A DNA stretch of 64,000 nt, taken from assembly GCA_033286805.1 (NCBI GenBank), contig GCA_033286805.1_4727.1; one strand, 5' to 3'. Positions 12,872-63,471 of the stretch are shown here, one piece after another. Under the pieces are notes generated by a model, which did no database searches, was not told the origin of the DNA, and saw only the letters and a list, made by a program, of their open reading frames with translations. The DNA is from a phage. How positions within the stretch are numbered: the first letter of the stretch is position 1; each line of letters opens with the position of its first letter. The position numbers were made by a program, and so were the translations under genes.

Positions 12872-15800
12872 TTATCTTACGTTACTGCTATTCTGCTGTT
12901 CGCTGAACCAACCGTACACCTTGAGATCGGTACCATATCTCAGTGCGATATACGCATTCAGCGCAGCACAGAACAAAGACGCGAATGCCCATATCAGCGA
13001 AGGATCAACATCTTCCGTTACCACTGGGAGAGTATTATCCGGTTCCCATGATGGAGAACTGTCCATGAACGTCGTGTACCATTCCCGCCGTTGTTCTTCA
13101 GTGGTAAAGTCGCTATGGGGTTCCAATGCTTCTTTTGCCAGACGTCGATATTCGAACATATGCGTTGCTAAAGCCGATGAGTTACCAGATTCGCCTTCAT
13201 AGTTCGGATCCACCGCATAACAGAGTTCTGTGGAATCTAACAAAGCGACCGCCTGTGTGATGCTGTCGGCAGTGCCTGCACCATAGAGCTCGATAGACCG
13301 CGAGAGCTTCTCACAGAACGCATTTAACGCGGCAGGATTGGACACCTGAAGGTCAAGGCCTAATGTCCACGGATAGTTACTGAATACACCCGTAAACCGC
13401 GGCATAACACCCAACAGATGTTGTCCGATTACAGCACGGTTATAAACAGCCCGGTTATAGACTTGAAACGCAGCCTCCAGGGCTTGGTTATAATGACGAC
13501 GAAGTTCATCACGCGTGTTGCGGAACCTGTTTGCCGCGAGACTTGTGGCTGCAACGCTACAAACATCGTAATTGGTGGACGAGAGCACAACCTCGTTAAG
13601 ATCGAACGATTCCTGTTTCAATGTTCCGCTAACAGCTGCCGCTTCGCTGTTCGCTTTATCGACAACTGTACTCAAAGCGTTGATGTAACGTTTAGCTCGG
13701 ACCTCCAACCATTGTGCGATGCCGAGAATATCCACCGCAGCTTTAGCAAGATCGCGTGCATTCACGATTTCGTTCTTCAACGCCCCTAAACCTTTATTTT
13801 CAGGCGATGAGGCTTGTTGACGAATCATGCTGTTCAACATGGTAAGCAGATTATCCAACTCATGTCCGCTGACCTTGTTACGCGCATCGGTAATCGGCCC
13901 TTGCAGGAATTTACGGCAACCATCGTTGTATCGAATCAGTTTATCCACATCGATAGATTCGTTCGTAGATTCCTTGAACTGATCCTTCAATTCTTCACGG
14001 TAGTCGTGGATTTCACTTGCGAGATTATCGATAGTGATACCGTCATGTCCAAGAAGAACTTTATTGAAGTTACCTTTCTCGAATGCCAGAGCAAGACCTT
14101 CACGAATCTTAGCGAGTTTATCCTGATCGAGTTCACGACCGTTCGATAGCTCTTTCACTTCCGAGCTGATTAATGCCGAAACGTTACCCAGATTGTCGGT
14201 AACTCCTTTGAACGCTCCCGACCAAATCGTTCCTACTTCAGCATATTTCGCAATGGTCTGAATACCGACGGTGTGTAGCGACGCTAAACGTTTCTTCGTG
14301 CCTTCGGTAAGCAGAGCGTCTTTAGCTCGCGTAAGCTGACTGTTATTAGCTTCCGCCTGCTGAATCGCTGCTTTCGCACTTCCATTACGCCAGCTCTTAA
14401 CCAGCCAATCAACCAAACGTTTTAGGATATTGACGGTGTATTCCATTGTCCGCCGTAACGTTTCCCACGCGCTTTCTGCGGTATAGATGCCGTACCCTTC
14501 CATCTTCAACGCTTTCAAGCTTGTTTGACGTGCCAACCATTCTACCGTTGCAGAGCAAACGTTTACTAATGCTTCCAGGTAGTTGTAATAGACGTCTGTT
14601 GCAGTTGTTTCGTTGAACTTTGAATGCAGATAGAACTGATCGTAAAGTTCGTCGTCATCGCCGAAGGCATCATAGTTCCACAGTTCTGTATCACAACCTG
14701 TACCGCAGAAGACGTCAGCTGTCGTAAACTCTTTAAGCGCTTTAGCTGCGTCATTTGTCAGGAATTTACCTGTTTCAACTACATCGTCAACATTAAGCTT
14801 GGGGAGTTCGTCGGTGACTGGCTCTTCCAACATCAGCATATTGAAGAATGTGCTGTACTTGTATCCGAGCCATTTTGGATAACTGCTTTCAGGGATCGTA
14901 GACAGCGGCTTGATTTTCTTGGCTTCAGCCAATGTGTCTTTTGCGACCTGATATTGGTTTTCCCCAGCCTTGACGCGACGTAATGCTTTTTCTTCCAACT
15001 GCTTAAGCTTGGCATGGCGTGCTTGTGCTGGAGCTTCAACAAGTTTTTGTACCGACCGCATTGCAGAAATCGCTTCTTTTAATACGATCATCGGCATACG
15101 AACTTTACCGTCGTCGAAACTAAGAGCGCGAGCGACACGTTTACTTACGACCGGCTTATCATGGATATTTCGTTCCACCCACGATTTGTTTGCGTAAGTT
15201 TGAGCGATCTGCTGTTGGATATTTTCAAGGTATTTCCAGCTGCTGGATGCTTTATTATCCAAAAGCGGATTCGGTCCCTTCTTATCGAAAAGTTTCAGAA
15301 TCGGACCAAAGAAACCTTCCTGTACGAGTTCGATACGCGTGTATCCGTCAGCCGCTTCGATTTCTTCTTGGGTTTTGTCCCAGAGCTGTTCACTACGGAC
15401 AGCAGTAGCTGTTTCAGATACCGACATAACAAGCTCGGCAACAACTTCAGCGCAGGTCAGTACGGTACGCACGCATTGCAGTAGCATACGCTGGTAAACG
15501 ATACGGGCGTTTTGTAAACGTGCGATAACCGCTAAATAACCGATATTGTCAAGACGTTCGTCGGCTTGAGCAGAGTCAACACGTTCTATCAGTTGTTTAA
15601 CCAGCGCGGCTGTTTCCGGATAATCGTTCACGACGTCACGCATAATTCGTGATGCGAAAACCGCGGTACCTAAAACAGTGAGGAGTGTTTTACTATCCCA
15701 TTCTTTTGGTGTCGCTACCGATTCAGTAGGGATGAGATTTCCCGCCTGGTCGAAGTACGGCATAAGGACATTGATATCAGTAGACGGAACAGCAGTAATT

Positions 15801-27700: not shown

Positions 27701-27754
27701 GGAGTGCTTGTCCTATTTTTATTTTCTGCACAGGATAAATTCAACGGCATAAAG

Positions 27755-33987: not shown

Positions 33988-34004
33988 CTTATGCTGTTAT
34001 GCTA

Positions 34005-50380: not shown

Positions 50381-50434
50381 GATGATTTCCTTCTTTATTA
50401 GGATGATTACATTTAGTCAGTTTAACAGCATAAA

Positions 50435-50473: not shown

Positions 50474-50971
50474 TTACGTGTGTCGTCGTTTACCAAAGAA
50501 AATGTGGCTGTCTACCACGGTGATATTGGTAGCATGTTTTCTGAAATGTTTAGGGCGAAGATGTTTCGCGTTAAAGAATACGGCTCCTCGTGTTGGGTCG
50601 GCTTTATGGTAAGCCGCAATGTCAGTATAACGTAATGTTGCGACCTCTCGTGCTATTGCTCTTGCTCGCTCAAAAGCAGCATGATCGCGTATGACAATAC
50701 GCCTTTGTTTTGTCCAGGGGAATTGACCTCTTTGCAGTACGACGTCTCTGACGTTCGTAGGGAATCGGTAGTCCATAGATCGATTATGTATTAAAAACGC
50801 CACGGAGTATTGCCCTTTTACAGATTCGCCTCTGGCTTCCATATACACCGCACATGCGACGATCTCTTTCCGGCAATCGATTCTAGGCCCTGCGTTCACT
50901 GATGCTTGACTGAACGGTGTAATAAGCAGCATAACAAGCCCTAAAATCAACGTGTGTAAAATACCTTGCAT
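50474..50971 (-). CDS. SleB-type cell wall hydrolase (putative endolysin) with N-terminal signal/SAR-like segment
   Basis: AVYMEARGE...SVAFLIHNR...DVVLQRGQF...GAVFFN matches the SleB/Hydrolase_2 signature; hydrophobic N-terminus MQGILHTLILGLVMLLITPFSQA. Confidence 0.75.
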   Translation of the reverse strand: MQGILHTLILGLVMLLITPFSQASVNAGPRIDCRKEIVACAVYMEARGESVKGQYSVAFLIHNRSMDYRFPTNVRDVVLQRGQFPWTKQRRIVIRDHAAFERARAIAREVATLRYTDIAAYHKADPTRGAVFFNAKHLRPKHFRKHATNITVVDSHIFFGKRRHT

Positions 50972-52496: not shown

Positions 52497-52847
52497 TTAT
52501 TTACCCAGATAGAGATATTCACCGCCCTGAACAACACCGGTTGCAGGATCAACAAGTATACGAACCCGCGCGTAGGTCTTGAAAGAGGGGTTGAAAACTT
52601 CGAAGTCTGCCACTTTCAATTTCACGCTGGGGTTGGTAGGGTTCTTAACTCCGGGAAGTTCTTTCGGGGTACCGAAATCAACACCGCATTCTTCAAGGTC
52701 TGCTGGCGTCATGCTCTCCATGGCCATGTAGATTGCTTTCGCTTTATCGTAAACTTCTGGGCTATCCAGCAATCCAGCCTGCGCTGAACCGACAACACTA
52801 CCGAACAGAATAGCAACAGCAACAAACAATTTAGTTAACGTTTTCAT
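52497..52847 (-). CDS. secreted/periplasmic hypothetical protein
   Basis: Signal peptide MKTLTKLFVAVAILFGSVVGSAQA; GAGGAAAA SD. Confidence 0.6.
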   Translation of the reverse strand: MKTLTKLFVAVAILFGSVVGSAQAGLLDSPEVYDKAKAIYMAMESMTPADLEECGVDFGTPKELPGVKNPTNPSVKLKVADFEVFNPSFKTYARVRILVDPATGVVQGGEYLYLGK

Positions 52848-52883: not shown

Positions 52884-53306
52884 TTAACGTACGGCCGCCA
52901 CACTGTTAGCGCATGCCTGAATATCATCGGTATTTACGATGATGGTTTCGTTAAACGCACGAATACGCGCACGACGTGCTTCTTTAAGGCTGGCGATTGC
53001 GCTAGCAGCTTGATCTGTATTCGCAAGGCTAATAACCGGGATCAAACGCATGTCAGGACTGCAGATATTCAATGCTTGGTATACACGTCCATTGATTCCT
53101 ACGGTATCAGACATCGGATAGTGCGCACGGCATTGAAATTGACCCATGACAACAAGCGAACGATCGGAGATACCAATCTGATAACGACCGTCTTCGCTGT
53201 AGGCGTAGCAGTTATTCCCACGAGCCATCCAGTTAGCCTGTGCTTGCGTGCTAACAAAAGCCAGGGTGGTGACGATAGCGAATACGATATTTTTGAACAG
53301 TTTCAT
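52884..53306 (-). CDS. secreted/periplasmic Cys-containing hypothetical protein
   Basis: Signal peptide MKLFKNIVFAIVTTLAFVSTQAQA; AAGGA SD. Confidence 0.6.
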   Translation of the reverse strand: MKLFKNIVFAIVTTLAFVSTQAQANWMARGNNCYAYSEDGRYQIGISDRSLVVMGQFQCRAHYPMSDTVGINGRVYQALNICSPDMRLIPVISLANTDQAASAIASLKEARRARIRAFNETIIVNTDDIQACANSVAAVR

Positions 53307-53790: not shown

Positions 53791-54747
53791 TCACGCTTTT
53801 GCTGAGTAGGGTTGGATCTCATTAATTCGTTTAACCACAACCTCAGGGAAAAGTTTGAGTATCTCATCAGGTGGTATCGCACCTTCTGTCCAACGATAAC
53901 GTTCAACCATCTCGATGCGTGGACTCCCTCCGACGTCAGCGATACGAAAGATGCAGGCGATGCCTAAATCGAAGCATACGCTGTAAATATCTTCCGTACC
54001 TCCTTTATCTGCAAGTATTTTCGCAAAATGCTCGTTATCAGGAAGAATGGCTAAATTACGGATACACCAAACATTATTCCCCATTTCTTCAAGTTTTGGG
54101 TAGGTTAAAGTGTGCCCGTATTGTGTTAACCATCGATGATTTTCGAGGTAGAAGTCCTTATCTCCGGGTCGATAACTCCGTAACACCGCCGTGTAGAAGA
54201 GATTGGGCATATCGAGCAGTTCTTGAATCGTTGGACCCGTATGCTCCCAGAGACAGATTTGTTTACGGTCTATATCGTAATCTGTGACGTTACTCACCTC
54301 CCAACTTATCGTAAGTTCATCGGCAACATGCCAACCTAAAGCCTGTTCACCACCAAGCAGATTAACAATGGCTGTTATTTCATACTTGTCAAATACGCCT
54401 AAATTACGCGGCGGCTGCATCGTACGTAATGGCTCCCACAGCACACTGTAATCATAGAGCAAATGGCGACATAAACTTTTTGTTAGAGGTGTCTGTTCAG
54501 TGAACAGTGGAAGAATCACCGTATCCAATAACGGGCGTAACGGATGACCATTCGGTGGTAACGGGGCAGCCAGCCGACCTCCTTCTTTGGGGTAATCGAA
54601 ACCAAACCCGTAACGCTCCGAAATGAGTGCAATCAGCACTTTTGCTACGCGGTTACGTAGCATGCGATGGATGTCATCACTGTAACTGAATTTCGGTTTA
54701 TTACCGCAAACGAAGGTGAAGTATCTGGGCGTTAGCGCAGCCATCAT
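53791..54747 (-). CDS. hypothetical protein
   Basis: 318-aa ORF, GAGGGAAAG SD. Confidence 0.6.
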   Translation of the reverse strand: MMAALTPRYFTFVCGNKPKFSYSDDIHRMLRNRVAKVLIALISERYGFGFDYPKEGGRLAAPLPPNGHPLRPLLDTVILPLFTEQTPLTKSLCRHLLYDYSVLWEPLRTMQPPRNLGVFDKYEITAIVNLLGGEQALGWHVADELTISWEVSNVTDYDIDRKQICLWEHTGPTIQELLDMPNLFYTAVLRSYRPGDKDFYLENHRWLTQYGHTLTYPKLEEMGNNVWCIRNLAILPDNEHFAKILADKGGTEDIYSVCFDLGIACIFRIADVGGSPRIEMVERYRWTEGAIPPDEILKLFPEVVVKRINEIQPYSAKA

Positions 54748-54754
54748 CTTTCCC

Positions 54755-55201
54755 TCAATCTAAATAGTACGTGATGGATAGGTCTTTTCCATCGAATACG
54801 ATATCCGTGCAATCGTGGATCGTCGGTAATACCATTTTTGCTGCTATTGGGACGTATGCCTGCAGTTCCATGAAGTTATTCATGCGGAACGCACGACGTA
54901 CCATCAGCGGTGTTAGTGTAAACGTTACGCTGACGTTACCGCTTGGGAGCAGGTGCATTATCGCATGCCCGTGATCGCACCAGCAATGGTTTTCGATCCA
55001 TCCGGTGTAAATCAGAATATCTTTATCTTCGTCGTAATAAGCAATGCCGGTCTGCTTTAAGTGGCTGGTAAATCGAGAGGCTTGCTCGTAGCCTGCACGC
55101 AACATTCGAGCAACCAGTCGAGTATTGTTGGCGATTCGATTCTGTTCGTTGGTTTTTGTGGTTTTGAAAATTTCGATACGTTCTGCTTTTGTAATTTGCA
55201 T
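54755..55201 (-). CDS. hypothetical protein
   Basis: 148-aa ORF, AAGGA SD. Confidence 0.6.
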   Translation of the reverse strand: MQITKAERIEIFKTTKTNEQNRIANNTRLVARMLRAGYEQASRFTSHLKQTGIAYYDEDKDILIYTGWIENHCWCDHGHAIMHLLPSGNVSVTFTLTPLMVRRAFRMNNFMELQAYVPIAAKMVLPTIHDCTDIVFDGKDLSITYYLD

Positions 55202-55283
55202 GATTACTGTCCTTTTGAAATATGTTTAGATAAGGAGGATTTACCGGGTATTAAAAAGTTATTTGGTATGTAATGTTTTTTTT

Positions 55284-55883
55284 TTACTTAGGTTCCAGTA
55301 TTGGTCCGAACAACCAGAATGTCAGACGCTGGTAAACCTGTTCGATGACTGCGGCTTCTGTTTGCTCTTCTAGCGCTTTCCCTTTCTTATGTTGTATTTC
55401 TGGCGGGATGTCGCCGTTGTAAACATACCCTGCTGAGAAGTCCCACGCCAGCCGTTTACCGAAAGTAGGTAAGAACACCTCTTCGAATCGGAACGCTTTC
55501 GAATTCCAATGAAGCAGCTGATCGGATTCAACATGTAAAGCTTTATTACGTTTGCTTGGCATGTTTCCGAAGTACTGAACGATAGCTGATTTCATAACCC
55601 GATCTGCGAAGTCTTTGGCTTCGACCTCATCGAGGGGAGGCAGACGATGCGATAGATTCAGCTTGCGTTGTTCAACATCTATCTTACGCATCGCTTTAAT
55701 CAAATCACCAGGAACGATTTTACCCTTATGGCCTTCCTGTCGGTGTATGAAACACCCCTGGAATAGCACGCAAAGTTCTTGAGGTGCTGTACTTTCCATT
55801 CGTCCGTAAGCAACGATCACCGAACGACGACGATCAATAACTTCGCGGATAAACCGCGGCTCAGTAATACTCACCACTGTCAT
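55284..55883 (-). CDS. hypothetical protein
   Basis: 199-aa ORF, AGAGGG SD. Confidence 0.6.
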   Translation of the reverse strand: MTVVSITEPRFIREVIDRRRSVIVAYGRMESTAPQELCVLFQGCFIHRQEGHKGKIVPGDLIKAMRKIDVEQRKLNLSHRLPPLDEVEAKDFADRVMKSAIVQYFGNMPSKRNKALHVESDQLLHWNSKAFRFEEVFLPTFGKRLAWDFSAGYVYNGDIPPEIQHKKGKALEEQTEAAVIEQVYQRLTFWLFGPILEPK

Positions 55884-55927
55884 TTAAAGCCCTCTTTATC
55901 TTTTTCCATTTCTCTTTACATAACCAC

Positions 55928-56614
55928 TTAAGACGTTGCCATCTTATCTTCCAGAGACTTCTTCGGTAAACCATGGATAACTCCTTCCGGGGTTAAGAAC
56001 ACACAGTCTGGATTCTGCGTTCGCGAACGGTCTTCTGGGCTGTTCAACGAGAACAGCAACGCAGAAATACCTTTTGTCCGATTTAACGTTGCGACGATCA
56101 CATCAAGCTGCCGTAGCGCATCCGATACCGTTCGATGAGGAACGATTCGCGACTGTTTGAAGCTGGCTAACCGCCAAGTCTCGAACAAACAACGCAGTTT
56201 AAACACGTCGGACGGAATAGCTGTAGATCCCTGTTCGATAACCTCAACCCGATCAGCTTCAGGATAACCTACAGCAACCGCACTAAAGTGTCTTACCCCA
56301 TTATGAAAATCATTGATAGACGCTTCGGCGTATTTACATACCGTACCAGAAACGACCATCACTTTTGCTAAACCGCGATAATTGATCGTTAACGGAATAC
56401 GAAATACACGTAAAGCATGTTCCGGATTTAATGAGACGTCATTCACTTTCGCAGATACCAGCGCACCTCGTTCATATCGAGCTTTGAACGGCAGCCCATT
56501 ATAAACGGGGTTGATTACAACGCCCCCTGGGGAGGCGTTAGCGTTAAGATGAGTGTTAAGCCAATCGGATACTTCCTGCCTGCTGGTTACGATTAACATA
56601 AAACGGTCCTCCAT
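55928..56614 (-). CDS. hypothetical protein
   Basis: Start moved to ATG 56614 with GAAGGAAAAG SD, avoiding overlap with the methyltransferase gene. Confidence 0.55.
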   Translation of the reverse strand: MEDRFMLIVTSRQEVSDWLNTHLNANASPGGVVINPVYNGLPFKARYERGALVSAKVNDVSLNPEHALRVFRIPLTINYRGLAKVMVVSGTVCKYAEASINDFHNGVRHFSAVAVGYPEADRVEVIEQGSTAIPSDVFKLRCLFETWRLASFKQSRIVPHRTVSDALRQLDVIVATLNRTKGISALLFSLNSPEDRSRTQNPDCVFLTPEGVIHGLPKKSLEDKMATS

Positions 56615-56624
56615 TTCTTTTCCT

Positions 56625-57275
56625 TCATTCATGGCGCATATCTTCCAAATCATCCTTTTGTTTTGTAAATTCTGATTGCTTGCGATAAACCTCCCATGAG
56701 TCGTATATACCGTAAAAGTTCAAATGGCGTGCATTTAAGTTCACAGTAAATTCTTCCACAGAGGCAAAATCCGAACGAAGCATCGAATGGAAGGTGTCAT
56801 CTCCAGTGCAGCCTCCGTATCCTTCACCCTGATAGACCAAAAGCTGGTGAGGTTGGATACGTGCGGCAACCAATGCAGCTTGTGGTTCGTCGTAAGGTGG
56901 CCATGACAGTAGAATAACGTCGTACTGTGAAAGATCGATGTTTGTGTAGTCGGCTTGCTGAATGTCCTCGATAAACGGGTGGGGATGTAATTCCGTATCG
57001 TAAGCGGTAATGTCCTCAACACCAAGTTTACGCAACACATAGGTCAGGTAACCTGTCCCACAACCCAGGTCAGCAACACGTCGCCCGTAACAGATGTTCG
57101 CTAACTGGAGTGCGGTATCCATGGTTAACAACGACCATCCAACGTGCTGGGTATATTCTTCACGGACAATCCATTGTTGATGGTGCGTCATCGGTTCTAA
57201 GATAGCAGCAAGCTGCTGGTACGGCAACGGCATTTTGGTTTCGCCTTGCGTGAGTAATGCGATAACATCGTTCAT
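56625..57275 (-). CDS. SAM-dependent methyltransferase (GxGxG plus PPY motif)
   Basis: VADLGCGTGYLT (SAM motif I) and ILLSWPPY (xPPY-like); ORF-track start 57308 lies in a terminator hairpin loop, ATG 57275 has AAAGGAAA SD. Confidence 0.6.
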   Translation of the reverse strand: MNDVIALLTQGETKMPLPYQQLAAILEPMTHHQQWIVREEYTQHVGWSLLTMDTALQLANICYGRRVADLGCGTGYLTYVLRKLGVEDITAYDTELHPHPFIEDIQQADYTNIDLSQYDVILLSWPPYDEPQAALVAARIQPHQLLVYQGEGYGGCTGDDTFHSMLRSDFASVEEFTVNLNARHLNFYGIYDSWEVYRKQSEFTKQKDDLEDMRHE

Positions 57276-57298
57276 TTTGTTTCCTTTTATCGGCATAA

Positions 57299-57319
57299 GC
57301 CCTCCCATGTCGGGAGGGT
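57299..57319. terminator. hairpin GCCCTCCC-ATGTC-GGGAGGG
   Basis: Left flank CATAA; just past the 57324 gene stop; overlaps the ORF-track start of the methyltransferase. Confidence 0.55.
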
Positions 57320-57753: not shown

Positions 57754-58287
57754 TTAAGCTCCTTTGTGTTTTACGGACGATGTTAACCAGGACGATCTTA
57801 CCGTGAAACCCTCAGACTCGTAGAACGCCTGGGCTTCAGCGTTATCAGCACGAACATCCAGACCAATAGAATGCCCGCCGCATCGGTAAGCGATGTTGCG
57901 CGCTTCATTCATCAAGGCATGACCGATCCCACGTCCGCGATATTCGGGTTTTACAATAATCGATGTAACGTCATGAATGCCCATATGGCTCTCTGTATTC
58001 ACTTCCAAGAGGCCTACCGGTATCGAAGCGATAGCATCGATCATAACGACCAACATTGCAGTATCTGGTAAACGCTTTTCTAATTCTAAAGCATCGTACT
58101 CGCGTTTTAAATCGGGGATATTCTCAAACATAAACGTGGTAGCCCATGCCTCTGATTCTACATCGTCGAGAATACGGTACAGCTCACGAATCTGTCGTTT
58201 ATGTGGGTAAAGGTGTGGATCGGCAGCCGTTGAGGCGATAACGCAATAGAACTGTCGTTCATTAATAACTACTGTTTTGATGCTCAT
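57754..58287 (-). CDS. GNAT-family N-acetyltransferase
   Basis: Acetyl-CoA motif VKPEYRGRGIGHALM and AQAFYESEGF; GAGGGAA SD; ATGA overlap with the upstream HTH gene. Confidence 0.75.
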   Translation of the reverse strand: MSIKTVVINERQFYCVIASTAADPHLYPHKRQIRELYRILDDVESEAWATTFMFENIPDLKREYDALELEKRLPDTAMLVVMIDAIASIPVGLLEVNTESHMGIHDVTSIIVKPEYRGRGIGHALMNEARNIAYRCGGHSIGLDVRADNAEAQAFYESEGFTVRSSWLTSSVKHKGA

Positions 58288-58790
58288 GCTAAAATTCCCT
58301 CATTACCTAACAGTCGATTACGATGACGTCGGTACATTTGACAAAGTGTTGTGATTTGATAATGTTTGTTGTAACGTACCTCGATACGTTTTTGCACCTC
58401 TTTCCATGGAAGTTTATCGTATTGCCGATAACGATGGATTTCATTTAACATACGAAGACGAGTAGGATCGGTGTTCTTTATCGTCGTGAGCTTCACACGT
58501 TGATATCCACGCTGTAGTCCTGATTCGGAATACGTGACGTCAAACTCATCTTGAATGATGGTAATGATCTCCCGCCACCGACGGTTCTCGCCGTCACGTA
58601 AATGGACAACCCGCGATAAGATATCGTTCCGATTACGATGACTCAGTTTAATGTTAAGCATTGAAGCAATCGCGCTAATTGCTCTCTGACTCCGTCCTAA
58701 CGCTTCACCTATTTCTTTCGATGTCATGACGCCCGCGTTTCGGCGTATGAATGCGATTTCGGTTGTTGTGTATTCTTTACCTGCTGCCAT
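58284..58790 (-). CDS. HTH DNA-binding protein, tandem paralog 1
   Basis: YTTTEIAFIRRNAGVMTSKEIGEALGRSQRAISAIASML helix-turn-helix-like repeat. Confidence 0.6.
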   Translation of the reverse strand: MAAGKEYTTTEIAFIRRNAGVMTSKEIGEALGRSQRAISAIASMLNIKLSHRNRNDILSRVVHLRDGENRRWREIITIIQDEFDVTYSESGLQRGYQRVKLTTIKNTDPTRLRMLNEIHRYRQYDKLPWKEVQKRIEVRYNKHYQITTLCQMYRRHRNRLLGNEGILA

Positions 58791-59254
58791 TTCTTACCAC
58801 GTGTGTTATAATAGTAACGCTGACAAAGATGTGTGTGACGGTACTCCCGTTTGAACTCGACGCTGATAATGCGAGCAACTTCTCTCCAGTTAACTCCTTC
58901 ATGCCGAAGTGCTGTAATACGGTCTGAAATTTTGCACCATTCATCTGGGTCGTATCGTCGTAGCTTGAGTCGTCGTATTACGGAGGCGACACTCGCTCTC
59001 GATCGGCCAAGATGATTTGACAGTTGTTTAACCGAGTATCTGTGGATATTGTCGCGAATATAGGAAATCTCGTTGTTCGTATATGCCTCATTGGTTCTCG
59101 ACGAAGGGAACAGCATATACAACTTATTCTTAATCGCGCTTTCTGTGCGTTGAAATACAATAGCCAGATCACTAACCGGTGGTCTGGGTATCTGATCCGC
59201 GTAACTCTCGAGGCGTGAGAGTTCCTCATCTGTCCAGCGACGGTATTTGCGCAT
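58724..59254 (-). CDS. HTH DNA-binding protein, tandem paralog 2
   Basis: Start moved to ATG 59254 (MRKYRRWTDEELSRL) with AAGGAG SD; two HTH-like repeats. Confidence 0.6.
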   Translation of the reverse strand: MRKYRRWTDEELSRLESYADQIPRPPVSDLAIVFQRTESAIKNKLYMLFPSSRTNEAYTNNEISYIRDNIHRYSVKQLSNHLGRSRASVASVIRRLKLRRYDPDEWCKISDRITALRHEGVNWREVARIISVEFKREYRHTHLCQRYYYNTRGKKWQQVKNTQQPKSHSYAETRAS

Positions 59255-59729
59255 AGGCAACTCCTTTGTTTTTCGTGTAGTAACACCAACGTTGATACAA
59301 CGCATGTTTATTCGTTGTAATCCCAAATTTAACAACAACGTCGTATGTGATAACATTCCAATTTTGGGTAACGTTAAGTCGTTCCGCGATAAACGCGATA
59401 ATCGCTTCCCGTTCTTGCTTGGTGAGCGCACGACGAATTCCATTAAGCCGTATAAACTGACGAACCGAGTCATACGAACGGTTTAAATCGTACGCAATCT
59501 CACGCAGCGATTTTTGTTTGATTACGGACTTGATGTACGCGCGTTCTTCTTCCGTATAAGGTCGATGCTTTTGGCGTTGACGTATTCCCAAACGTCCCAG
59601 ACGCGCGTCGATGCTGGCGCGTGTTCGTCCTGTCCGTTGTGCGATTTCATCAATCGTCATCGATGTGTTTAAGTACAGATGCGTGACGTCTTTCAGCTCG
59701 TCGTCACGCCATGGTTGAGATCGTCCCAT
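59226..59729 (-). CDS. HTH DNA-binding protein, tandem paralog 3
   Basis: WRDDELKDV...MTIDEIAQRTGRTRASIDARLGRLGI plus a second repeat; start/stop overlaps with neighbours. Confidence 0.65.
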   Translation of the reverse strand: MGRSQPWRDDELKDVTHLYLNTSMTIDEIAQRTGRTRASIDARLGRLGIRQRQKHRPYTEEERAYIKSVIKQKSLREIAYDLNRSYDSVRQFIRLNGIRRALTKQEREAIIAFIAERLNVTQNWNVITYDVVVKFGITTNKHALYQRWCYYTKNKGVAYAQIPSLDR

Positions 59730-60207
59730 CTTGTATCCCTCTTTTCTTTCTATGATGCCACCAACGCTGATAGACAGCCTGCTTCGTACGTGTTATACCG
59801 AAATGCGCATTAACCCGTTCAGCAATGTGGTGCCAATCCTGTGTTTCTTCCAACAATGTATCAACGAAGGCTACGAAGATCTTAGTATCAGCCTCGCTTA
59901 ACCGCTTGAAACCATGACGGTGTGCTATCGTTCTAATACTGTTTGGATCCCTGTTTAAATCGCGTGCGAGTTGTTTGTAACTTTTGTGTTTGCAGTGTGC
60001 TCTGATATATTCCAACTCATCGACACTGAAACGTTTATGCGGTTTACGACGTTCAACATTTAAGTATATCAACCTCGATTTAATTGCACCGTACGTTGTT
60101 TCCATGATTTCTGCGATTTCACGGATTTTTAATTTCGGGTGACGATAGTACAATTCCAGCAACTGTTCATCATCCTTACGATTCCATCGTCGTACTGGAG
60201 GTTTCAC
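59704..60207 (-). CDS. HTH DNA-binding protein, tandem paralog 4
   Basis: RRWNRKDDEQLLELY...IREIAEIMETTYGAIKSRL plus a second repeat. Confidence 0.65.
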   Translation of the reverse strand: MKPPVRRWNRKDDEQLLELYYRHPKLKIREIAEIMETTYGAIKSRLIYLNVERRKPHKRFSVDELEYIRAHCKHKSYKQLARDLNRDPNSIRTIAHRHGFKRLSEADTKIFVAFVDTLLEETQDWHHIAERVNAHFGITRTKQAVYQRWWHHRKKRGIQDGTISTMA

Positions 60208-60220
60208 AACGAGATTTCTC

Positions 60221-60688
60221 CTATTCTGCGCGTTTTAATGCTTGAGTGTAGTAGAGGCTATGAACACCGCTTAACGTGTAATGGGTGTTAAATTCGTTAT
60301 TGATGATATTCCGTATTCTCTCCCAGGTGTTATTCTCTTTTCTAAGGGTGTGTATTCGATAATAAATCATCTCTCGACGTTGCGCTTTGCATGCAACAAT
60401 ACCGTAACGGTAGCAGAGTTTAGCGATTGCATCCACGCTACGATTGAACATCACTGCGGCTTCTTTTACGCTATGCGTCTTAAGATAATCAGCTAACATC
60501 ACGCGTTCTTCGAAACAGCAATAGCGGTGACGCGACGTGAGTTTCCAACGCTTGCGATTACGGTTAATTCGACCTTGAACAGAGCCTTCTGTTCGGTCAA
60601 GCCGTGCCGCAATCTCTTGCATCGGGATACCGTTTCGGTACAGAGTAATCAATATCGCGTCTTCTTCGGGTGTCCAGTCCTTGACCAT
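60221..60688 (-). CDS. HTH DNA-binding protein, tandem paralog 5
   Basis: WTPEEDAILITLYRNGIPMQEIAARLDRTEGSVQGRI resembles the GcrA N-terminal / Myb-like HTH. Confidence 0.65.
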   Translation of the reverse strand: MVKDWTPEEDAILITLYRNGIPMQEIAARLDRTEGSVQGRINRNRKRWKLTSRHRYCCFEERVMLADYLKTHSVKEAAVMFNRSVDAIAKLCYRYGIVACKAQRREMIYYRIHTLRKENNTWERIRNIINNEFNTHYTLSGVHSLYYTQALKRAE

Positions 60689-60700
60689 AGTGCCACCCCA

Positions 60701-63364
<2,664 letters not shown>

Positions 63365-63471
63365 GTTGTCGTTTCCTCCATACGAAACCAAAAAATTGTC
63401 AAAATGTACATCAGCATAACGCCCGTGCCCGCCCGCGATGGGAGGGACACAGGCAATACGCTTTTATTTCA

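Follow-up and report, generated by a model that had tools for sequence, protein, structure and literature searches.

Four lineage-restricted accessory genes of a Goslar-like jumbo phage, one of them probably derived from a DNA ligase adenylation domain

Four consecutive open reading frames (ORFs) of 318, 148, 199, and 228 amino acids, here called genes 1 to 4, lie on the minus strand at positions 53791-56614 of a 64,000-nucleotide stretch of phage DNA (NCBI GenBank assembly GCA_033286805.1, contig GCA_033286805.1_4727.1), referred to here as the window. The only phage matched by this 2.9-kb region among 50,697 phage records was Escherichia phage vB_EcoM_Goslar, with 96.4% nucleotide identity, and the gene order around the four-gene block is the same as in Goslar, gene for gene, indicating that the window derives from a close relative of that phage. 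Goslar (two records in our collection, GenBank MK327938 and RefSeq NC_048170) is a 237-kb nucleus-forming jumbo phage of E. coli in the family Chimalliviridae, genus Goslarvirus. Our preferred reading, held with moderate confidence, is that the block consists of four lineage-restricted accessory genes and that gene 4 encodes a catalytically dead, ligase-derived domain that likely acts as an adaptor or scaffold. Part of that reading is the origin of gene 4: its N-terminal half very probably shares a distant ancestry with the adenylation (nucleotidyltransferase) domain found in NAD+-dependent DNA ligases.

Gene 4 and the ligase adenylation domain

The first sign of this relationship was a weak BLASTP match in an internal comparison of all ORFs, which paired gene 4 with the phage ligase, gp121, at a segment centered on ligase motif I (INPVYNGLPFKARYERGALVSA). 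A second match between the two, collinear with the first, fell at ligase motif IV. Pairwise Smith-Waterman alignment of gene 4 with the ligase was not significant (z of ~2 to 2.5 against shuffles), and a deep ligase profile was therefore built from 83 adenylation domains, comprising 80 viral domains from IMG/VR, that of the window ligase, and those of E. coli and Thermus filiformis LigA from PDB alignments. Comparison of this profile in hhalign with the seven-member family of gp110, the Goslar orthologue of gene 4, gave a probability of 94.2% (P = 1.1e-7; score 54.6) over 82 columns. The resulting alignment is collinear throughout, running from the 'LDNvF..eE' helix before motif I through motif I itself, the next two strands (AxxLxYxxGxLxxA), and an 'IP' motif to motif III.

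An alternative explanation is that profile-profile comparison has produced a false positive here and that gene 4, like genes 1 to 3, is an orphan. Several observations count toward it and against homology. The gp110 query profile is very shallow (effective number of sequences, Neff, 1.25), the pairwise scores are not significant, and a shallow ligase profile of three sequences reached only P = 0.0095. Neither the Pfam ligase model (PF01653) nor PDB sequence searches find gene 4, and an AlphaFold2 (AF2) model of gene 4 built from a four-sequence alignment was unusable, with a mean predicted local distance difference test score (pLDDT) of 35. The confident alignment is limited to the N-terminal ~85 residues, the motif IV/V region being tentative, and the link to ligases comes from profile-profile comparison only. 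The controls, however, argue for homology. Column-shuffled gp110 alignments (n = 150) scored 15.1 on average (standard deviation, 2.5; maximum, 26.3) and the reversed profile scored 19.1, as opposed to 54.6 for the true alignment. With Goslar-like ligases removed from the ligase profile, gene 4 was the only non-ligase outlier among the 68 window genes (runner-up P = 0.0093; probability 4.4%), and this reduced profile still gave a probability of 81% for the single gene 4 sequence (P = 1.2e-5) and of 94.1% for the family profile. When 294 ORFs were ranked with a plain ligase hidden Markov model (HMM), gene 4 came second (E = 0.033, against 1.7 for the ORF after it), while a gp110 HMM scored forward ligase sequences at up to 11 bits and reversed ones at no more than 1.9 bits. 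The families of genes 1 to 3, run against the same ligase profile, had probabilities of at most 1%. Considering these margins over the shuffled and reversed controls together with the collinearity from motif I to motif III, we regard a false positive as unlikely. A recent duplication of gene 4 from gp121 was also considered and found no support, since the ligase that scores highest with the gp110 HMM is one other than gp121.

The aligned region has lost the residues expected of an active ligase. In all seven family members the AMP-accepting lysine of KxDG is replaced by Val37, the motif reading 'PVYNG', 'PVYDG', or 'PVYAG'. In the confident part of the alignment, TRGDG corresponds to KVNDV, with loss of the arginine, and the VRGEV of motif III to VSGTV, with loss of the glutamate. 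Ligase motif IV ('DGxVxK') is aligned, with low confidence, to 'SALLFS', and the motif IIIa region (NPRNAAAGSLRQ) is without a counterpart in gene 4. The TRGDG arginine, the motif III glutamate, and the lysines of motifs IV and V are essential nucleotidyltransferase residues, as reportedly established by LigA mutagenesis in the Shuman laboratory. Gene 4 begins at the equivalent of LigA residue ~80, where the adenylation domain starts, and thus has no domain Ia (nicotinamide mononucleotide binding). At 228 amino acids it also has no OB, Zn, HhH, or BRCT domain, and hhalign against the C-terminal 370 residues of the ligase gave a probability of 0.3%. Judged by these replacements, the product of gene 4 does not qualify as a DNA ligase, yet it appears to descend from one as a stand-alone, catalytically dead domain. 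We consider it a pseudo-enzyme rather than a decaying fragment because it is under purifying selection (discussed below) and is translated. A fragmented second ligase, in which gene 3, gp108 (a Goslar gene of this block), gene 2, and gene 1 would be what is left of the OB, Zn, HhH, and BRCT domains, was examined as well and was rejected, with hhalign probabilities of at most 1% for all of them.

Coding status, constraint, and distribution of the block

The positions of the four genes and of the other features discussed here are collected in Table 1. The RefSeq identifiers of the Goslar orthologues are YP_009820791 (gp106) and, with the same prefix, those ending in 792 (gp107), 794 (gp109), and 795 (gp110). 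All four are annotated as 'hypothetical protein', and their order and orientation match those in the window.

Table 1. Coordinates of the four genes and associated features in the window
Feature	Coordinates	Strand	Basis
Gene 1 (318 aa; gp106 in Goslar)	53791..54747	-	ORF; 94% aa identity to Goslar_00106
Gene 2 (148 aa; gp107 in Goslar)	54755..55201	-	100% aa identity to Goslar gp107
Gene 3 (199 aa, basic, with a pI of 9.0; gp109 in Goslar)	55284..55883	-	97% aa identity
Gene 4 (228 aa; gp110 in Goslar)	55928..56614	-	99% aa identity
Gene 4 segment (residues 9-93) confidently aligned to LigA	56336..56590	-	hhalign; region also found with the profile lacking Goslar-like ligases
Putative motif I equivalent in gene 4, 'NPVYNG' (residues 35-40), versus ligase 'EPKYDG'	56495..56512	-	Family alignment
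AT-rich spacer of 82 nt in place of the 138-aa gp108	55202..55283	-	Window/Goslar alignment
Complete NAD+-dependent DNA ligase of the phage (689 aa; gp121 in Goslar)	61014..63083	-	E = 1.5e-157 to E. coli LigA 2OWO; motif I KYDG intact; Pfam domains of orthologues
Boundary element just past the gene 1 stop: invariant 'TTTTCACGGCTATATTAC', then a 9-bp stem (AGGTGAAGC/GCTTCACCT) with a variable loop	53722..53775	-	Four-genome comparison

The four ORFs are genuine genes. Orthologues are present in five other Goslar-like genomes or contigs, and the pairwise ratios of nonsynonymous to synonymous substitution rates (dN/dS) are low: 0.08-0.18 for gene 1, 0.00-0.04 for gene 2, 0.11-0.15 for gene 3, and 0.06-0.21 for gene 4. 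These pairs were drawn from the window, Goslar, L003 (a contig of a Salmonella assembly), and L002 (an ENA metagenome scaffold), with dS of up to 1.5, and the values are indistinguishable from those of the flanking methyltransferase, GNAT, and ligase genes (0.04-0.16). In label-free liquid chromatography-tandem mass spectrometry of Goslar virions after purification, gp107, gp109, and gp110 were each identified by two or three unique peptides, and gp106 was not found in the same table (bioRxiv 10.64898/2026.04.21.720040, Table S4). The mass that we computed for the gene 2 product, 17,148.6 Da, is the value listed for HOV27_gp107 (2 peptides). A purine-rich, Shine-Dalgarno-like site lies 6-9 nt before each of the four ATG codons (GAGGGAAAG, AAAGGA, AAGAGGG, and AAGGA in minus-strand reading), in line with the good Shine-Dalgarno sites noted in the first-pass annotation. 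While the lack of homologues of known function might suggest chance open frames or decaying pseudogenes, this explanation is refuted by the purifying selection, the peptides, the ribosome-binding sites, and synteny kept in six genomes or contigs.

The start of gene 4 is ambiguous among 56653, 56614, and 56599, its frame being open up to 56653. The best Shine-Dalgarno site belongs to the start at 56599, where GGAGG with an 8-nt spacer would give a product of 223 amino acids, and this is the start used in the Goslar annotation. The pI of gene 4 is ~8.9, as computed for the 241-amino-acid ORF from 56653.

Among the remaining three genes, gene 2 is the most constrained of the block. It holds a Cys/His-rich stretch, HCWCDHGH, which might bind metal. 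At the C terminus of the gene 1 product, 120 residues hardly vary at all. The AF2 model of gene 3, built from a nine-sequence alignment, is of medium confidence (mean pLDDT 67; predicted template modeling score 0.67), with residues 10-130 at 76-95. In this model four strands come first, then three helices, then another four to five strands, and finally a C-terminal helix that is poorly predicted, and fold searches with this predicted alpha/beta fold returned no known match. Gene 3 therefore apparently has an unmatched alpha/beta fold, at least as modeled.

Sequence searches gave nothing credible for any of the four genes in Pfam, PHROGs, NCBIfam, or PADLOC, and zero matches to defense or counter-defense families at PADLOC E ≤ 1, Pfam ≤ 0.1, and PHROGs ≤ 0.01. 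NCBIfam returned a small number of matches at E = 0.004-0.12, which were dismissed as noise because they reached 12-16 bits where the cut-offs are 80-560. PDB sequences, queried with single sequences and with family profiles, likewise gave nothing for all four. Searching each protein by tblastn against the 50,697 phage genomes recovered Goslar only (E ≤ 0.1; E ≤ 0.01 for gene 1), so the four genes are without the homologues across chimallin-encoding phages that characterize the Chimalliviridae core genome. An index of 5.8 billion proteins held 15 clusters for gene 1, all 85-97% identical, 8 for gene 3 (61-96% identical), and 4 for gene 4 (70-96% identical), with no relatives beyond Goslar-like phages. 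An exhaustive HMMER scan of 1.84e9 cluster representatives, run for gene 2 only, returned its own cluster and three spurious repeat proteins, and IMG/VR contained two contigs with gene 1. Genes 1 to 3 have no paralogues in the window or in the Goslar genome (searched in all but ~6.8 kb, which window ORFs cover); an HMM match of gene 3 to an ORF at 13814-14149 (+) (E = 0.005) was discarded because that ORF is antisense inside another gene. No mutual similarity was detected by hhalign among the four families and gp108.

The neighboring methyltransferase has homologues in the Aeromonas jumbo phages pAEv1810 and AerS_266, and its neighbors in those phages bear no relation to genes 1 to 4, even at the profile level. 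In AerS_266, the ORF following the methyltransferase (L005 7673-8215) matched the C terminus of gene 4 ('QNPDCVFLTPEGVIHG') over 22 columns (P = 0.0027; probability 11%). We judged this match to be due to chance, and it is the sole positional hint of a wider gene 4 family. In the literature searched, we found no mention of Goslar gp106 to gp110 or their accessions, and the annotation of neither Goslar record includes a ligase ancestry for gp110.

Taken together, these searches place all four families in Goslar-like phages only, and because of this limited distribution we class them as lineage-restricted accessory genes, which agrees with the variable accessory region published for chimallivirus genomes (PMC10299810). 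Genes 1 to 3 appear to be constrained, Goslarvirus-specific proteins without detectable relatives. The first-pass annotation had reported no recognizable motif in any of the four products and had proposed homology and fold searches for each of them. Its description holds for all four in sequence-to-profile searches and for genes 1 to 3 in profile-profile searches as well, where the fold search with gene 3 also ended without a match, but it fails for gene 4, which the ligase profile recovers. The searches did not assign all four genes to ordinary nucleotide-metabolism or structural roles; gene 4, although apparently from a DNA-metabolism enzyme, is without the catalytic residues. Accessory status, which had been proposed from the neighborhood alone, now has the distribution and the gene-content polymorphism described next behind it.

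The block is polymorphic in gene content. The 138-amino-acid gp108, for which we found no Pfam match, is present in Goslar, L002, and L003 (intact in both L002 and L003, though uncalled by the source annotation in the latter) and is missing from the window and from IMG/VR contig L091, which has an 85-nt gap at that place and no gp108 match. In relatives, gp109 and gp108 overlap as TAATG, and gp108 and gp107 are 2 nt apart. In the window, the methyltransferase is separated from gene 4 by 10-25 nt and gene 2 from gene 1 by 7 nt, so the tight packing described by the first-pass annotation is confirmed at these two junctions but not at the 44-nt and 82-nt gaps from gene 4 to gene 3 and from gene 3 to gene 2. 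Because of this tight coupling (the TAATG overlap and the 2-nt and 7-nt gaps), the arrangement suggests that genes 1 to 3 are co-expressed with gene 4.

Genomic neighborhood and transcription context

The four genes belong to a leftward array with the order ligase gp121, helix-turn-helix (HTH) paralogues, GNAT, gp112, S-adenosylmethionine-dependent methyltransferase, gene 4, gene 3, gp108 (where present), gene 2, and gene 1. The ligase, which is the functional relative of gene 4, sits 4.4 kb upstream of it in this array. Pfam upheld the identities of the methyltransferase and GNAT neighbors on which the first-pass annotation had relied. It had also placed the block between the lysis cassette and the methyltransferase; ~7 small ORFs (51.0-53.7 kb) intervene between the block and the SleB-like hydrolase at 50474-50971, so the block does not directly adjoin the lysis genes.

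Other features of the neighborhood were recorded in passing. The start of the methyltransferase gene is ambiguous (57272-57308, minus strand), its ORF being 227 amino acids here and called at 216-223 amino acids in relatives, and a TTATGCCG motif overlaps one of its in-frame ATG codons. Between GNAT and the ligase, at 58284-60688 on the minus strand, lies a run of paralogues of ~150-170 amino acids each with faint Myb, sigma-70 region 4, or HTH signatures (Goslar gp114-gp120), the copy number of which varies among Goslar-like genomes. On the other side of the block, two small minus-strand genes at 52497-52847 and 52884-53306, orthologues of Goslar gp103 and gp104, encode proteins with signal-peptide-like N termini (MKTLTKLFVAVAILFGSVVGSAQA... 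and MKLFKNIVFAIVTTLAFVSTQAQA...). In the Goslar mass spectrometry table these two are at ~29 and ~39 copies per virion-equivalent, respectively, exceeding the virion RNA polymerase subunits. Rfam families and tRNAs were absent from the window.

The boundary element that follows the gene 1 stop codon (Table 1) has stem arms that are invariant across four genomes and a loop that varies, with a fold z of -5.4. Its consensus, tTTCACGGcTATATTACyTAnGTGA, occurs in Goslar at 113797, 2567, 142800, 166069, 160791, and 172978, all on the minus strand, the TTTCACGGCTATATTAC element being the one at Goslar ~113,797. The shorter motif TATATTAC is found at ten places in Goslar, none of them on the plus strand, with a 19-fold enrichment in upstream spacers. 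The longer consensus is shared by several of these copies, and a variant is situated immediately upstream of chmA, the chimallin gene. In PhiKZ, TATATTAC is the consensus of early (virion RNA polymerase) promoters, and the TATATTAC-type element looks like such a promoter in Goslar-like phages. The boundary element is probably a promoter together with the 5' hairpin of the next transcription unit. A new unit would then start after gene 1, which would leave the four genes as the 3' end of the leftward unit before it, the one that includes the ligase, HTH paralogues, GNAT, gp112, and methyltransferase genes. A scan of 52.8-58.4 kb with sigma-70 promoter and intrinsic-terminator consensus sequences gave results not above those of shuffles.

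A second motif, TTTATGCC / TTATGC[CT]G, was seen in five to six Goslar upstream spacers against 0.24-0.56 expected. In the window it occurs in intergenic spacers at 63412-63419, 50426-50433, and 27745-27752 (minus strand) and at 33989-33996 (plus strand), for example just upstream of the gp122-ligase genes, and it possibly represents a 'TATG'-type promoter of the middle or late class.

Possible functions and relation to known systems

If the product of gene 4 retains a ligase-like fold, that fold could bind a protein partner or DNA, and gene 4 would then take part in phage DNA transactions without catalysis, as an adaptor or scaffold. We put this specific role forward as a tentative proposal. 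Counting against it, the role is argued by analogy, and adjacency is the only thing that functionally links genes 1 to 3 to gene 4.

A different possibility, which we consider real though less probable than our overall reading, is that these are four unrelated, lineage-specific host-takeover or counter-defense genes, and that the ligase ancestry of gene 4 is irrelevant to DNA transactions, the fold having been re-used, for example, to engage a host protein. The location of the block in a variable accessory part of a chimallivirus genome would fit this explanation, as would confinement to one genus, presence/absence polymorphism within the block, the mutual dissimilarity of the four families, and replacement in gene 4 of most of the nucleotide-contacting residues of the ligase pocket. 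However, none of the four matched PADLOC models or the anti-defense families of Pfam and PHROGs, their dN/dS values (0.00-0.21) are without sign of arms-race diversification, and the array in which they lie is rich in nucleic-acid enzymes and related proteins (ligase, methyltransferase, and HTH proteins).

Two further explanations seem improbable. Gene 4 could be a mimic, decoy, or inhibitor that engages something by which an NAD+-ligase is normally recognized, such as host LigA, its partners, or a defense sensor, with genes 1 to 3, lineage-specific and with new folds, as its partners in a Goslarvirus module manipulating nick sealing or NAD+-linked immunity while the phage replicates in its nucleus; nothing that we found supports such an action on host LigA or NAD+-linked defense, and we give this idea little weight. 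About equally doubtful is the suggestion that one or more of the four proteins, especially gp107, are packaged in the virion at low copy, injected with the DNA, and active in the early infection vesicle. In CsCl-purified Goslar, gp107 is present at ~4-10 copies per virion-equivalent (estimate, ~6), which is in the range of the virion RNA polymerase subunits (7-21), and gp109 and gp110 were also detected. Clear non-virion proteins, however, are equal or higher in the same preparation (chimallin, ~126; PhuZ, ~170; thymidylate synthase, ~20; helicase, ~10), gp109 and gp110 are at less than one copy, like DNA polymerase (~0.3), and gp106 was undetected. In addition, no PDB chain matches the four proteins, and the preprint on the Goslar structure, in which 28 structural proteins were modeled, does not mention their gp numbers in its main text. 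These amounts do not show a structural role for gp107, gp109, or gp110, and the four are not identified as virion structural proteins.

We therefore return to the reading of four expressed accessory genes restricted to the Goslarvirus group, with gene 4 as a ligase-derived pseudo-enzyme and candidate adaptor. The ORFs were already in GenBank as Goslar hypothetical proteins, and no surprising biology is demonstrated here. What is gained, given that most genes of nucleus-forming jumbo phages are unannotated, is a probable evolutionary origin and a testable hypothesis for gp110, while gp106, gp107, and gp109 stand out as orphans under strong constraint that are reasonable targets in the tractable E. 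coli-Goslar system.

Comparison with known systems helps to define what gene 4 may be. Relative to Goslar, the four genes are orthologues at the identities given in Table 1, and the window differs in having no gp108 between gp109 and gp107. Relative to the LigA adenylation domain (PF01653; E. coli LigA, PDB 2OWO), residues 9-93 of gene 4 are collinear over the stretch that starts with the helix ahead of motif I and ends with motif III. The lysine, TRGDG, and VRGEV are intact in LigA, whereas gene 4 has valine, KVNDV, and VSGTV in their places, and domain Ia and the OB, Zn, HhH, and BRCT domains are absent.

The closest parallel is found in poxviruses. The polymerase processivity and scaffold subunit A20 (OPG148) derives from the adenylation domain of a bacterial-type NAD-ligase, and it has disrupted catalytic motifs, has diverged in sequence past ordinary recognition, and is kept for a non-enzymatic role in the vaccinia replisome (bioRxiv 10.1101/2022.11.22.517515). 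What gp110 appears to share with A20 is the evolutionary pattern, in which selection in a large DNA virus has kept an NAD-ligase domain that is no longer active. A20, however, is larger and binds D4 (uracil-DNA glycosylase) and the E9 polymerase, and its virus lineage and host domain are unrelated to those of gp110. The parallel is therefore an analogy of evolutionary route rather than one of family membership, and we claim no sequence relationship between the two proteins. On our reading, gp110 would be a bacteriophage example of an inactivated NAD+-ligase domain kept for a non-catalytic role, arrived at by the route inferred earlier for poxvirus A20.

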